Shown piece after piece: positions 54,997-61,048 of a stretch of DNA of 64,000 nt. This DNA comes from a virus, in the IMG/VR virus record IMGVR_UViG_3300042317_000390, positions 96,001-160,000 of that record; one strand, written 5' to 3'. The notes beneath the pieces were generated by a model that saw only the letters and a list, made by a program, of their open reading frames with translations, was not told where the DNA came from and ran no database searches. Every line of letters starts with the position of its first letter. Within the stretch, counting starts at the first letter, position 1. Both the position numbers and the translations under genes were made by a program.

Positions 54997-55454
54997 TGAC
55001 TAAGTTTCTAAATGTACTAATGGAGGAAAGAGAATCAGAGAAATCTGTTGAGACGAAGAAGAAGGAAGCATATGATTGGCGCTATGAAAATAGCATCATG
55101 AATGGACCAAAGGTAGAGATAGATGGTGATTACTCTCAGTGGAGAATCAACAATATTCTTTCCAAGCATAAAGATATTGTTCCGTTTATCAACGAAATGA
55201 ATATCAATTATCAGGTTTCAAACCATATGCACTATAGCTATCTTCATGGTGCAGTTAGAAAATATCGTCGTCAGTATACAAAAGGTGAAACTAAACAGGA
55301 AAAAGCAGCTAGAGAGAAAGAACAAGAACTTATCTCCTTGATTTCTGAGCACTATAAATATAATATTGTTCGTGCTAAGGAAGTCCTAAAGATTCTCACA
55401 GCGGAGCAAATTAATGAAATAAGAAAAAGAAAAGAAAAAGGTGGAGTAAAATGA
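54996..55454 (+). CDS. gp62: clamp loader small subunit
   Basis: Position between gp44 and regA; Y..W.IN..LS...D.....NEMN; Y.Y....A.E.L.ILT.EQ. Confidence 0.85.
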   Translation: MTKFLNVLMEERESEKSVETKKKEAYDWRYENSIMNGPKVEIDGDYSQWRINNILSKHKDIVPFINEMNINYQVSNHMHYSYLHGAVRKYRRQYTKGETKQEKAAREKEQELISLISEHYKYNIVRAKEVLKILTAEQINEIRKRKEKGGVK

Positions 55455-55852
55455 ATGAATTTTTGGACTCTTTAGTAGAGGTGAAATTTGCAGAAGAAGA
55501 AGATTTTTTAAAGATTAAAGAAACTTTGACACGTATTGGTGTTGCTTCTCGCAAGGAAAAGAAATTATATCAATCATGTCATATTTTTCATAAACAGGGA
55601 AAGTATTACATAGTACATTTCAAAGAAATGTTTTTGATTGATGGAAAGGATTCTAATTTTTCAGAAGAAGATAGAGGTCGTAGAAACAAGATCGCACATC
55701 TTCTTCAGGAATGGGGTCTTTTAAAAGTAGTTGAACCAGAAAGAATTACTGAACCATTAGCATCTATGAGTCAGATTAAGATCATCAATCATAAAGAAAA
55801 GCATGATTGGACTCTTGAGGCTAAGTATAATATGGGTCGTAAGAAAAAGTAA
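55451..55852 (+). CDS. regA: translational repressor RegA
   Basis: DFLKIKETLTRIGVASR..KKLYQSCHI.HKQGKYYIVHFKE. Confidence 0.96.
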   Translation: MNEFLDSLVEVKFAEEEDFLKIKETLTRIGVASRKEKKLYQSCHIFHKQGKYYIVHFKEMFLIDGKDSNFSEEDRGRRNKIAHLLQEWGLLKVVEPERITEPLASMSQIKIINHKEKHDWTLEAKYNMGRKKK

Positions 55853-56452: not shown

Positions 56453-56626
56453 ATGGACAACATCAATCTCCAAGTCCAAGACGAGACGGGAAACTGGCGT
56501 ACATATACCGTTACTCAAAATAATTCCCAGTTAATCATAATGGGGATGCGACAGCTACAGTGGCAGTTTCCTTCGAGACGCATTCGTGCTGTTGATGATT
56601 GTGGTAGAGTAGTTGACATACTTTAA
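56453..56626 (+). CDS. small early protein, 57 aa (absent from ORF track)
   Basis: TAAGGAG RBS; MDNINLQVQDETGNWRTY...RIRAVDDCGRVVDIL*. Confidence 0.75.
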   Translation: MDNINLQVQDETGNWRTYTVTQNNSQLIIMGMRQLQWQFPSRRIRAVDDCGRVVDIL

Positions 56627-56646
56627 TTAAATAGGAGAAATATATA

Positions 56647-56853
56647 ATGGTAAAGACTCAGACAGATCGTGTTATTAATGCTCTCGTGACTAAGGGTCAG
56701 GCTCTAACAGCCAAGCAGATTTCAGCACGTTTCGGTGCAGCTAATCCACATGGTCTAGTTTACAGCCTTCGTAAGAAGGGTCTAAACATCAAGCTAGTTA
56801 CCACAAAGGATTCTCGTGGTCGTGAGACTTCGAAGTATACATACGTAGGCTAA
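56647..56853 (+). CDS. small winged-HTH DNA-binding protein
   Basis: AGGAG RBS; LTAKQISARFG..NP...VYSLRKKG.NI. Confidence 0.7.
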   Translation: MVKTQTDRVINALVTKGQALTAKQISARFGAANPHGLVYSLRKKGLNIKLVTTKDSRGRETSKYTYVG

Positions 56854-56855
56854 AT

Positions 56856-57065
56856 AAAGTTTCGTGGGTCTGGGCGAAAGAACGCAAGACCCTAGTTGGT
56901 AAGGGAGATCACCACCCTTGGATACACGCCGTCCGTATGGAGATTTCCGGCGCAACCGGACGAAAGGCCAGCCCAAGGGGAACCGGGTCATTAAAACACA
57001 ATGGGGTTTTAATGATTTTCAATCAACGGTTCTTAAACAGACACCAACACCCACGGAATAACTTT
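56856..57065 (+). ncRNA. unidentified structured non-coding RNA (~210 nt)
   Basis: GC-richer than its surroundings; nested helices including a long closing stem and several hairpins; CTAAATA late-like box at 56850. Confidence 0.6.
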
Positions 57066-57077
57066 ACAGGAGTTTAT

Positions 57078-57308
57078 ATGCCTACCTATTACAGGTGTAG
57101 AACATGTTCTCGTATAACTAGCTTCTACCCTTGGGGGTGTATGAAACCATTTTGTGAAGTAAAGAGAAACCTTCTTGGTGATGTTATATGGAATCTCTTT
57201 ATTTTCATAGCGGTAATAAGTATAATATTCTTAGCGGCGAGTAACTTTGTTGTTAACGCTAAACTAAGAGATTTGTACGGCGTACAGTATACGGTTATTC
57301 CCCGATAG
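57078..57308 (+). CDS. small membrane protein with N-terminal Cys motifs
   Basis: AGGAG RBS before ATG 57078; CRTC..C...C then one TM segment; stop codon lies inside the 5' end of tRNA-Asn. Confidence 0.5.
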   Translation: MPTYYRCRTCSRITSFYPWGCMKPFCEVKRNLLGDVIWNLFIFIAVISIIFLAASNFVVNAKLRDLYGVQYTVIPR

Positions 57309-57374
57309 CTCAGCTGGTAGAGCAAGGCACTGTTAATGCCTGGGTCGGAGGTTCGAGTCCTTCTCGGGGAGCCA
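57299..57374 (+). tRNA. tRNA-Asn(GTT)
   Basis: TCCCCGA/TCGGGGA acceptor, AGGCA-CTGTTAA-TGCCT, GGTTCGAGTCC, encoded CCA. Confidence 0.95.
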
Positions 57375-57396: not shown

Positions 57397-57440
57397 GACT
57401 CGTGTGGATCTAAGGTTAGTCCACAACTATGGAGATTAAA

Positions 57441-57734
57441 ATGAAAAAGACCCTTATTGCTTTACTAACCGTGCTAACACTAGCAACGACTGCTGCTCCA
57501 GCTAACGCTTGGTGGCGTGGTGGTTACTACGGAGGATATTACGGTGGTTATGGATGGGGCGGTTACGGTGCTGCTATGGGTATCGGTGCAGCTATCGGCG
57601 TTCTAGGTGGACTAGCAGCTTCTGGCGGTTATGGATATGGTTACGGCTATAATCCATATTACGGATATGCTCCACCACGTGGTTATGGTTATCCTTATGG
57701 TTATCCTTCTAATGGATATTACTACGGATGGTAA
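57441..57734 (+). CDS. secreted Gly/Tyr-rich protein
   Basis: GGAG RBS before ATG 57441; signal peptide MKKTLIALL...PANA; GGYYGG low-complexity body. Confidence 0.75.
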   Translation: MKKTLIALLTVLTLATTAAPANAWWRGGYYGGYYGGYGWGGYGAAMGIGAAIGVLGGLAASGGYGYGYGYNPYYGYAPPRGYGYPYGYPSNGYYYGW

Positions 57735-57736
57735 TC

Positions 57737-58132
57737 ATGAAAAAGATCATTCTCGTTTTATCGTTGCTTATAGCATCGAGTGCTTATGCGGGCAACGAGA
57801 TAGATGTGTGTAACGGTTGTAAGATTTATTATTCAACTCCAAGAAGAGTTGTAGTAAAGAAAACCGTTACGAGACAAGTTCCTGTTCCAGTAGCAGTCCC
57901 TGTTGCTCCGGCACCAATGCCTGTTCCTGTTGCGGTTCCAGTGGCTCCAATACAACAGCCTGTAGCTGTTCAGTATTATCCTGCTGGACCTGGACCAATC
58001 ACTTCAACTATGATGGTTCCAGTAGCAGTTCCTGTAGCACCACCTCCTAGAGTTTGTGCTTGGTATATTGATCCATACGATCTGTTCGGACAGTTGTTCG
58101 GTAATCCAGATCTGGTTCAATCTTGTTGGTAA
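57737..58132 (+). CDS. secreted Pro/Val-rich protein
   Basis: Signal peptide MKKIILVLSLLIASSAYA; PVPVAVPVAP repeats; paired Cys. Confidence 0.7.
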   Translation: MKKIILVLSLLIASSAYAGNEIDVCNGCKIYYSTPRRVVVKKTVTRQVPVPVAVPVAPAPMPVPVAVPVAPIQQPVAVQYYPAGPGPITSTMMVPVAVPVAPPPRVCAWYIDPYDLFGQLFGNPDLVQSCW

Positions 58133-58140
58133 ACTAATAC

Positions 58141-58216
58141 GCCCAAATAGCTCAGCTGGTAGAGCAACTGATTTGTAATCAGTAGGTCGGGAGTTCGAAT
58201 CTCTCTTTGGGCACCA
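58141..58216 (+). tRNA. tRNA-Thr(TGT)
   Basis: GCCCAAA/TTTGGGC acceptor, ACTGA-TTTGTAA-TCAGT, GTTCGAATC, encoded CCA. Confidence 0.95.
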
Positions 58217-58412: not shown

Positions 58413-58487
58413 GCGGGTATAACTCAGGGGTAGAGTGTCAGCCTTCCAAGCTGTTCGTCGCAGGTTCGAATCCTGTTGCCCGCTCCA
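58413..58487 (+). tRNA. tRNA-Gly(TCC)
   Basis: GCGGGTA/TGCCCGC acceptor, CAGC-CTTCCAA-GCTG, GGTTCGAATCC, U73, encoded CCA. Confidence 0.95.
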
Positions 58488-59665: not shown

Positions 59666-60287
59666 CAGTCACCGTATATATTGCGTCCATACGAGAAGTT
59701 GTAATGAAGTTATTTGGGTTATTCGGATCTGGTGCTATCCAGTTAAGTGCGATTGGACCAATACCTTTCGCCATATAATAACGAGCACCAGCTGTCTTCT
59801 TACCCCAAGATTGTTGATACACCATAGTGATAATATCGGTGTATCTATCTCCGTTTGATAAAGTCATTTCTGGAATATGTGATTCCCAAATAACCGTTTG
59901 GGTTCCAGACATGAATTGGGGAGGATTAGATCTAATTGGATCCATCTTAGGAAAATTACGATAGAAGCCTCCAATCTCTCCAAATTCTCCCCAACCTATA
60001 CCCGGATTCATAACTACTTTTTTGCGATTAGTAAACCAACCACCAGTTGGATAATCATCACGCCATTCCATTAACCCTTTGCCCGCCTCATAACGTAGAT
60101 ACCAAGTATCTACCCATTCTCCCTTTTCATTATAATCAACATAAAGTAAGTCTTTACCATCTAATGATAGAACAAACTTAACGATAAGATCTGGCATAGA
60201 CTTATCTACTGTTTTGTAATGAAAGTTGTGAATCTTTCCGGGTAGTGGACTAGGCCAATAATTTGGGACAAAGAATTTATCTGCCAT
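59637..60287 (-). CDS. hypothetical protein (Trp-rich)
   Basis: 216 aa in the operon; ends with ARYYMAKGIGP. Confidence 0.65.
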   Translation of the reverse strand: MADKFFVPNYWPSPLPGKIHNFHYKTVDKSMPDLIVKFVLSLDGKDLLYVDYNEKGEWVDTWYLRYEAGKGLMEWRDDYPTGGWFTNRKKVVMNPGIGWGEFGEIGGFYRNFPKMDPIRSNPPQFMSGTQTVIWESHIPEMTLSNGDRYTDIITMVYQQSWGKKTAGARYYMAKGIGPIALNWIAPDPNNPNNFITTSRMDAIYTVTDGTQKDIQT

Positions 60288-61048
60288 TATACTTGAATCC
60301 TCATCTTATCTTTAAGAATGATATACTCTTTAACGAGAGCAGATCTGACAATATCTTCAGCATTGAATTCTATGAGAGAGAATGATCTCATATTTTTAAC
60401 AACACGCATGAAATCAGTTAAACCGTTCTTCTCGTGTTCTCTGGTGAAGTCAGACTGTCTGAAGTCTCCACAGAAGATAACTTTACAATTATGACCTACA
60501 CGTGTGATAACGGAATCAAGTTCATGTAAAGTAGCGTTCTGCATTTCGTCTACGATAACTATGCAATCGTTGAGAGTAATACCACGTATAAAAGATGTAG
60601 ACATGAACTCAACAATATTCTTATTCTTAAGGTAGTCGTATGCATCGCCTCTACCAAATAGTTCGTTACATATTGCATAATATGGTGCTTCGTATACTTT
60701 CGTTTTTTCTTTAGAGTTACCTGGAAGAAAGCCCATATCTCTAGTCGGAACAACTGTTCTAACGATTACAATTTTCTTATAAACAGATTCTGGATCGTTT
60801 AGTATTTGTTTCAACGATAGATACATTGCCATAAAGGATTTACCTGTACCGGCAATGCCATGGAGCATAAGATTCATATCTTCAGAAAACGCCTTGAAAG
60901 CCCATCTTTGGTTTTCAGTCAATGGATCAAAGTGTCTTAAGTTGAAATTTAATTTCTCTTGATAATTCTCTTTTTGTGGTTTTCCTTGTTGGCGAAGAAG
61001 TCTTTTTTCTCTACGGGTTAATCTTTTTGTTATATGTTCTTCTTCCAT
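60287..61048 (-). CDS. phoH: PhoH-like ATPase
   Basis: G.AGTGKS; RDMGFLPG..KEK; FIRGIT; DEMQN; TRVG; GD..QSD; DIVRS.LVK. Confidence 0.95.
   Translation of the reverse strand: MEEEHITKRLTRREKRLLRQQGKPQKENYQEKLNFNLRHFDPLTENQRWAFKAFSEDMNLMLHGIAGTGKSFMAMYLSLKQILNDPESVYKKIVIVRTVVPTRDMGFLPGNSKEKTKVYEAPYYAICNELFGRGDAYDYLKNKNIVEFMSTSFIRGITLNDCIVIVDEMQNATLHELDSVITRVGHNCKVIFCGDFRQSDFTREHEKNGLTDFMRVVKNMRSFSLIEFNAEDIVRSALVKEYIILKDKMRIQV

Follow-up and report, generated by a model that had tools for sequence, protein, structure and literature searches.

An uncatalogued family of structured RNAs found in or beside the tRNA clusters of unrelated tailed phages and proviruses

Among the structured non-coding RNAs of phages and prophages are GOLLD (RF01998) and ROOL (RF03087), which are of unknown function, are often found near tRNA islands and have pseudoknotted, conserved folds (PMC12286853). 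Both are large, at ~580-800 nt or more, and form homo-oligomeric cages. Phage T4 encodes two small stable RNAs that are likewise of unknown function, rnaC (139 nt) and rnaD (119 nt), also termed species 1 and 2 RNA; the two genes follow tRNA-Arg head-to-tail and leave a gap of 1 nt, so that tRNA processing presumably frees both RNAs. Theta ribozymes are minimal HDV-like elements whose defining feature is that they cleave no further than 5 nt from a tRNA 3' end (PMC10879173); they are ~50-60 nt in length, have the HDV double-nested pseudoknot and have been shown to self-cleave. The RNA described here has a new fold and a genomic habit that is common to the enigmatic phage RNAs GOLLD, ROOL and T4 RNAs C and D, and it ties into the question of why phage tRNA islands also harbour these.

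The window, which is the whole stretch of 64,000 nucleotides analysed, is part of a 168,653-bp IMG/VR virus record with a genome G+C of 0.385, and its source is, judging by a RegA (55451-55852) that is ~65% identical to cyanomyovirus RegA, a T4-type myovirus. The structured RNA of ~200 nt lies on the plus strand at 56860-57058, in a 224-nt gap between ORFs 56647-56853 and 57078-57308 for which the list of open reading frames gives no credible ORF. The upstream ORF encodes a winged-helix protein of 68 aa with a weak match to Pfam HTH_39. The initial annotation of this DNA had described the RNA as richer in G+C than the genome, which it is (0.50 versus 0.385), and as ending just ahead of the ribosome binding site of the next ORF, and indeed 19 nt separate its 3' end from the ATG at 57078, with AGGAG in that gap. 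Its parts and the genes that follow it are listed below.

56850-56856 (+), CTAAATA box, read from the sequence, 3 nt 5' of the terminal helix; a possible late-type promoter, putative
56860-56869 (+), 5' strand of S1, the 10-bp terminal helix joining the 5' and 3' ends; 10 of 10 pairs change on both sides, 89.9% paired
56874-56885 (+), hairpin hp1, GCG-AAAGAA-CGC, with invariant GC, AAAGA loop and GC, from the covariation and conservation columns
56886-56889 (+), invariant linker AAGA, within GCAAGACCC, which is kept in at least 21 of the 22 cluster representatives
56890-56893 (+), CCCU, 5' strand of the pseudoknot stem; partner 56902-56905, 100% paired in 28 sequences
56895-56900 (+), GUUGGU, 5' strand of S2, inside the loop of the pseudoknot hairpin; 6 of 6 pairs change on both sides, 94.6% paired
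56902-56905 (+), AGGG, 3' strand of the pseudoknot stem, from pairing across the 28 sequences
56906-56914 (+), conserved junction AGAUCACCA, family consensus AGAWMA...; GGGAGA (56903-08) and A 56911 conserved
56915-56979 (+), S3 domain, in which S3 (56915-21/56973-79) closes a three-way junction; 7 of 7 pairs of S3 change on both sides
56928-30/56966-68 (+), S3a, within the S3 domain; 3 of 3 pairs change on both sides
56932-41 (+), hairpin A, within the S3 domain; 2 of 3 pairs change on both sides
56946-60 (+), hairpin B, within the S3 domain, with loop C-GCAA (56951-55), then GAAAG; 5 of 5 pairs change on both sides, GCAA conserved
56981-57031 (+), S4, a variable hairpin with base AACCG/CGGUU; 4 of 4 modelled pairs change on both sides
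57032-57038 (+), conserved junction CUUAAAC, 5' of the 3' strand of S2; CUUAAA in nearly all rows of alignment A5, A 57036 conserved
57043-57048 (+), ACCAAC, 3' strand of S2, from covariation
57049-57058 (+), ACCCACGGAA, 3' strand of S1, from covariation
57078-57308 (+), small Cys-rich membrane ORF of 76 aa from the ORF list, outside the RNA and given as context only; overlaps the start of tRNA-Asn
57299-57374 (+), tRNA-Asn(GUU), first of three same-strand tRNAs (ARAGORN, Rfam)
58141-58216 (+), tRNA-Thr (ARAGORN, Rfam)
58413-58487 (+), tRNA-Gly (ARAGORN, Rfam)
Positions conserved in at least 21 of the 22 cluster representatives (+): GC 56874-75; AAAGA 56877-81; GCAAGACCC 56884-92; A 56894; GGGAGA 56903-08; A 56911; C 56933; G 56940; GCAA 56952-55; A 57036

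Relatives of the upstream 68-aa ORF are encoded at 49 IMG/VR loci, of which only one (L001) carries the RNA, at 80% identity and with compensatory changes visible, and hence the two are not tied together; tBLASTN of the same ORF against isolate phages gave no match. Exact-pattern scans built from blocks common to the window copy and L001 added more copies from viral contigs, a single one from 185,579 species genomes (L078) and 17 from metagenome contigs. With a covariance model (R1), made from ten copies and a hand-drawn structure, members of the family score 36.8-170.5 bits and every other locus at most 20 bits; chance pattern matches at L053, L057, L059, L064, most of the genome-scan loci and L119-L148 were rejected by this model. 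A looser scan of viral sequences from which the AAAGA block was left out yielded zero new members. The family as it stands comprises 30 copies, 28 of them distinct sequences, in 22 clusters at 85% identity.

The carriers include T4-like myoviruses, a complete alphaproteobacterial-type provirus, other viral contigs, metagenome contigs and a single tRNA array on a Paracoccus megaplasmid. Their genomes span 38-62% G+C, and each genome checked has one copy of the RNA. Two of them (G000 and G002, the latter holding L062) are distantly related T4-type phages in which the RNA is downstream of regA. Another (G003) is a 49.9-kb virus with a G+C of 0.50, whereas the complete provirus (G004, 48.7 kb) has a G+C of 0.62 and carries the RNA after its Rz1/LysC lysis gene. 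One carrier clade has a weak match to a Mu-like head protein. No protein was common to the four carrier genomes compared, and there is therefore no obvious protein partner encoded alongside the RNA. BLASTN of the window copy, L056 and L062 against 50,697 isolate phage records found no homologue, nor did BLASTN of L078 against the PLSDB plasmids, and thus no isolate phage carrier is known. The only named-isolate bacterial carrier found is Paracoccus sp. ME4, with L078, in which the RNA occupies 1975-2156, on its 535-kb plasmid unnamed1 (NZ_CP151277.1); a family-level covariance model search of 151 Rhodobacteraceae genomes returned this known copy only (1 of 151). As the isolate is named and its genome assembled, the question becomes experimentally approachable if the strain can be obtained and cultured.

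The fold of the plus strand has a minimum free energy of -68.0 kcal/mol (z = -2.90, with 0 of 200 shuffles equally stable), that of the minus strand being slightly less exceptional (z = -2.40). Every helix listed in the initial annotation is in place and is also part of the minimum free energy fold. Comparison of homologues gives covariation support to S1, S2, S3, GCC/GGC, TCC-GTAT-GGA, TCCGG-CGCAA-CCGGA and AACCG/CGGTT, although for the last of these it is the base that covaries; the inner extension which it encloses, GGTCATTAAAAC/GTTTTAATGATT, is present but this 12-bp stretch (56986-57017) is specific to the window copy, and S4 varies in length from ~10 to 80 nt across the family. In the covariance model alignment of the 28 distinct sequences (A5) 86.8% of the cells of the nested structure are paired (58.0% after shuffling of the 3' partners), with a covariation score of 0.674 as compared with 0.175 for shuffled partners and 0.09-0.14 for partners slid by 1-3 columns. 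None of 500 shuffles matches the observed value on any covariation measure, and in S1, S2, S3, S3a, hairpin B and S4 every pair has changes on both sides. A caveat that applies to these values is that A5 was fitted to the model and so somewhat favours the structure, but the effect is so large, and the pair types in each column so many, that the structure is hardly in doubt. In hp1 two G-C/C-G pairs are invariant, while the third pair is GC in 9 sequences, UA in 6, GU in 3, AU in 1 and unpaired in 9.

Two additions to the earlier picture come from the homologues, namely the wide distribution of the family and a pseudoknot. The latter is formed by CCCN (56890-93) and N'GGG (56902-05), which pair in 28 of 28 sequences, the fourth pair being U-A in 14, C-G in 11 and G-C in 3. 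Since the 5' strand of S2 occupies the loop of this hairpin, the two together make an H-type pseudoknot on which S1, of 7-10 bp across the family, is able to stack. RNAalifold offered an alternative in which N'GGG pairs with the 5' part of S3, but this is broken by L051 and L054, whereas the S3 pairing covaries. A further alternative, the switch proposed earlier between GGGTCT and AGACCC, can be drawn in the window sequence but does not hold in the family, where it is 45.5% paired, the same as the shuffled value, and shows no covariation. On the plus strand G-U pairs outnumber A-C combinations (62 versus 32), and in most members all six frames are interrupted by stops; the plus strand is hence the RNA strand and the element is non-coding.

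About 31 positions are invariant and most of them surround the pseudoknot. This invariance is partly built in by the way in which members were found, as the exact-pattern scans demanded AAAGA..GCAAGACCC...GGGAGA; against such a bias, L058 was found via another block, and every member recovered by the scan in which AAAGA was not demanded nevertheless has it. Natural RNA folds that are new and have dozens of invariant nucleotides at a pseudoknot are rare, and past cases have been ribozymes, riboswitches or parts of ribonucleoproteins.

Searches with the models of known RNAs identified nothing in place of a new family. When the whole window was searched with Rfam 15 at gathering thresholds only the three tRNAs passed, and with E up to 10 the region 56600-57300 gave just two chance matches, to eukaryotic snoRNA and lncRNA models. 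Among the 13 family loci outside the window that were scanned with Rfam, all matches were to tRNA and tmRNA and lay outside the RNA itself. The view that it is not a tmRNA, RNase P RNA, SRP RNA, hammerhead or group I intron was borne out, as was that of a novel multibranched phage RNA linked to a tRNA cluster, on the strength of the Rfam result at gathering and permissive thresholds, the strong covariation among 28 distinct homologues and the enrichment of the 22 clusters at tRNA arrays. No description of the family was found in the literature, with the limitation that the DNAVirus_* models of 10,006 viral csRNAs (PMC10690425; at most 151 nt) were outside the comparison and could overlap with it in part. 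The family is an uncatalogued one, and it is carried by unrelated tailed phages and proviruses in or beside tRNA clusters.

Like GOLLD and ROOL, it is an RNA of phages and prophages that lies near tRNA genes, about half of the 22 clusters having a tRNA or tmRNA on the same strand no more than 400 nt away. Those RNAs are, however, 3-4 times larger, and nothing points to oligomerisation of the present one; the GOLLD and ROOL covariance models had no match at E up to 10 in 56600-57300, nor did they match any of 13 other loci with E up to 1. The stable RNAs rnaC and rnaD of T4 are similar in being small RNAs of a T4-type phage encoded beside a tRNA gene, but rnaC ends in a tRNA-like T-arm, which the new family does not have, and R1 with filters off on T4 69000-75000 gave at most 4 bits over either gene. 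Theta ribozymes are also phage elements a few nt from a tRNA 3' end, as the new RNA is in five clusters (3-5 nt), but the latter is three times longer and occurs without an upstream tRNA as well. A HDV-like or theta topology (P1, P1.1, P2, P3, P4) was considered and rejected, as the single nucleotide that separates the S2 5' strand from the pseudoknot 3' strand leaves no P3/L3 and no HDV-family model matches. RNase P RNA (P4 pseudoknot, CR-I, CR-IV, CR-V) was rejected too, on a different order of strands, the lack of a AGGAAAGUCC-type block and the absence of a model match at E up to 10.

The position of the RNA relative to tRNA-type genes is clearest in five clusters, where it starts 3-5 nt past such a 3' end, the CCA end of a tmRNA included. 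S1 begins 5 nt past the CCA of tRNA-Asn in L116 (of the L116/L109 cluster), and the RNA starts 4 nt past tRNA-Met in L096, 3 nt past tRNA-Thr in L104 and ~3 nt past tRNA-Arg(UCU) in L061/L063. Neither these spacers nor the first bases of S1 are conserved. The Paracoccus copy lies inside a 24-tRNA array and ends ~9-12 nt before tRNA-Gly, and that of L062 is in an array of 12 tRNAs, while L093 has tRNA-Gly 200 nt upstream. In the window, L001, L058 and L062 same-strand tRNAs are found 157-387 nt downstream, and in the first three of these tRNA-Asn is at 201-387 nt. For the other half, approximately, of the clusters no tRNA is present within the available sequence, many of those contigs being very short. 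All 24 tRNA genes of the Paracoccus plasmid array are on the same strand and within 8 kb. A second spacer element of ~75 nt, near-identical in the two, occurs between the RNA and the next tRNA in L096 (120-201, minus strand) and L104 (1659-1717, minus strand); hairpins are predicted for it, but with two sequences only there is no covariation. A hairpin after the RNA in L056 was tried as a tRNA-like element and had no tRNA score.

One member sits within a tmRNA gene. In L092 the RNA is a ~190-nt insertion that fills the intervening segment of a permuted, alpha-type tmRNA gene (RF01849 99.2 bits, RF04321 94.3 bits), flanked by ...CCUCCACCA and UAA on one side and by UUAUGAU and GGGGGCG, the 5' acceptor strand, on the other. 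The Rfam consensus spacer of such genes is short and is drawn without base pairs, and the RNA is a guest there and not part of the tmRNA; ARAGORN finds no tmRNA in the window, and tmRNA, which is marked by a tRNA-like domain and a tag reading frame, was rejected as an identity for the RNA. The spacer of a two-piece tmRNA is removed by the same enzymes that finish the ends of tRNAs, which makes the L092 spacer equivalent to a spacer between tRNAs. The gene itself (L092:347-846, minus strand) is on a metagenome contig, encodes the tag ANDNQAYGDLRLAA and lies beside a PstS-like phosphate-binding gene and a porin-like gene. It is in this sense that the family uses the processing sites of tRNA and tmRNA as landing places, in phages of very different hosts.

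Members without an upstream tRNA tend to show promoter-like boxes, read by eye, that end a few nt before S1. L118 and L090 have TTGACA (CACCTTGACA) and, after a spacer of 17 nt that has diverged between the two, TATATA, the end of which is 5-6 nt from S1, and the L060 clade has TTGCAT, 17 nt and TAATAG. A sigma-70 consensus scanner did not call these boxes in L118, L090 or L060 because their -10 hexamers lack the final T. In L062 GGCTAAATA is found 4 nt before S1. The CTAAATA described in the initial annotation as a late-like box is directly 5' of the window RNA as claimed, and like the L062 element it is suggestive of a promoter, for which it is a candidate only. The word is depleted in the window (8 found versus 20.7 expected), but most copies are not ahead of genes, and a general role as the late promoter of the window phage is unsupported; the strand-biased word is TATAAATA (12 on the plus strand versus 1 on the minus). 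This distribution of TATAAATA over the whole window fits T4-type late promoters on the coding strand of the phage. A search for a terminator after the window RNA found none, and as the CTAAATA box is no more than a candidate promoter the RNA may stay the 5' part of an mRNA in this phage.

The genes directly 3' of the RNA are unrelated across clades. They encode the small Cys-rich membrane protein in the window, L001 and L058, PhoH in G003, a small basic Cys-rich protein in L098 and L086, and several hypothetical proteins. The 76-aa membrane ORF of the window is conserved in L001 and L058 only and belongs to no Pfam family. Recurrent neighbours that are not adjacent are class II ribonucleotide reductase, upstream in G003, L096, L104 and L109/L116, and dCMP deaminase, downstream in the window, L001 and L099/L101; PhoH is near the RNA in the window (60287-61045, minus strand) and in G003. 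Little weight is given to these three since they are ordinary companions of tRNA genes in aquatic phages.

Taken together the data make it very probable that the locus is a real RNA gene of an undescribed family, and from the sequences we infer that the RNA is expressed, has discrete ends and is stable. On balance we favour a stand-alone RNA that is matured via its own promoter or by tRNA-processing enzymes and that acts in trans through its invariant core. In the fold that covariation shows, S1 clamps both ends and can stack on S2 and the CCCN/N'GGG pseudoknot, and so long a stack would protect the ends; the fold is completed by the AAAGA-loop hairpin at the S1/S2 junction, the three-way-junction domain with its invariant C-GCAA loop and the one length-variable hairpin. 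To judge from gene order, the 5' end may be set by a promoter start at S1 or freed by 3'-end trimming of an upstream tRNA, and the 3' end may be freed by RNase P cleavage at a downstream tRNA or tmRNA. The weakest step is action in trans, in which the pseudoknot core would be a pocket for a partner that is alike in very different hosts (those of phages with 38% to 62% G+C); as a matter of speculation the likeliest partner would be either a small molecule or a constituent of the translation or tRNA machinery. Action in trans is favoured because the genes 3' of the RNA are unrelated across clades. At 170-210 nt the RNA is small enough for direct biochemistry and structure determination.

A bolder reading, which we consider rather unlikely, is that it represents a new functional class of RNA that is itself active, as a ribozyme on tRNA-type precursors or as a free aptamer that soaks up a universal small molecule, e.g. 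a defence signalling nucleotide, and that it has spread via tRNA-processing slots. A tRNA-processing ribozyme and a decoy or anti-defence RNA were among the possible roles put forward in the initial annotation. As to catalysis itself, an RNA of a new class that cleaves itself, or is catalytic in some other way, would trim the 3' trailer of an upstream tRNA or a downstream leader much as is proposed for theta ribozymes beside phage tRNAs, and the five clusters in which the RNA starts 3-5 nt past a tRNA-type 3' end agree with the site that defines the latter (PMC10879173). The compact pseudoknotted core with its ~31 invariant nucleotides is also typical of ribozymes. The topology is not HDV-like, however, and no Rfam ribozyme model matches, neither the 3-5 nt spacers nor the first bases of S1 are conserved, many members have promoter-like boxes or ORFs upstream instead of tRNAs, and host RNase P together with 3' trimming already accounts for release, so that this is a doubtful proposition.

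Slightly less credible again is a free-standing aptamer, a sponge or sensor for a nucleotide or an immune signalling nucleotide that has no expression platform. A conserved junction and pseudoknot core are typical of riboswitch aptamers, hosts of such different G+C would require a universal partner, and class II ribonucleotide reductase, dCMP deaminase and PhoH often place nucleotide-acting genes nearby, but in the parts of marine phage genomes that hold tRNAs such neighbours are ordinary, nothing points to a ligand and the known aptamer families give no match.

The suggestion in the initial annotation of a cis-regulator, here a 5' leader, riboswitch or protein-binding operator controlling the ORF at 57078-57308, is very improbable. 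It is true that in the window and in L058 a gap of 12-19 nt leads from the end of the RNA to the start codon of one and the same small ORF, that several other members are closely followed by an ORF, and that no terminator lies between the RNA and the ORF. Yet the downstream ORFs belong to unrelated families (PhoH, the small Cys-rich membrane protein, hypotheticals), which by itself makes a cis-regulator unlikely, L001 has ~190 extra non-coding nt between the RNA and its homologous small ORF, and tRNA or tmRNA genes, not ORFs, border the RNA in L078, L096, L104 and L092. There is also no conserved alternative pairing or sequestration of the Shine-Dalgarno sequence, the proposed switch having failed; a riboswitch or cis leader was rejected on the unrelated genes, the lack of a terminator and this unconserved helix. 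That there is no RNA gene at all, with chance helices or a protein-coding stretch in its place, can be dismissed, for although the window copy has one open frame, which belongs to ORF 56937-57308, the covariation exceeds all 500 shuffles on every measure, covariance model scores reach 170 bits, and most members are stopped in all six frames and differ in length by other than multiples of three.

Some minor observations concern the surroundings of the RNA. The small basic ORF directly 3' of the RNA is conserved between L098 and L086, where it begins ...KRPKTKRRVRCT(L/I)CTPHRW, and it differs from the downstream ORF of the window. The ~190 extra nt of L001 (L001:3478-3669), which is the window's closest relative, are G+C-rich and hairpin-rich, and there are ~80 extra nt upstream (L001:3208-3285); these may be another RNA or a small insertion. 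Between tRNA-Asn and tRNA-Thr of the window there are two odd, secreted-looking ORFs, one at 57429-57734 that is Gly/Tyr-rich with GYYGG-type repeats, and one at 57728-58132 that is Pro/Val-rich with PVAVPVAP repeats and a signal-like N-terminus and falls in no Pfam family. Finally, the ORF at 57078-57308 overlaps the first 10 nt of tRNA-Asn (57299), so that cleavage by RNase P would cut its mRNA at the stop codon.
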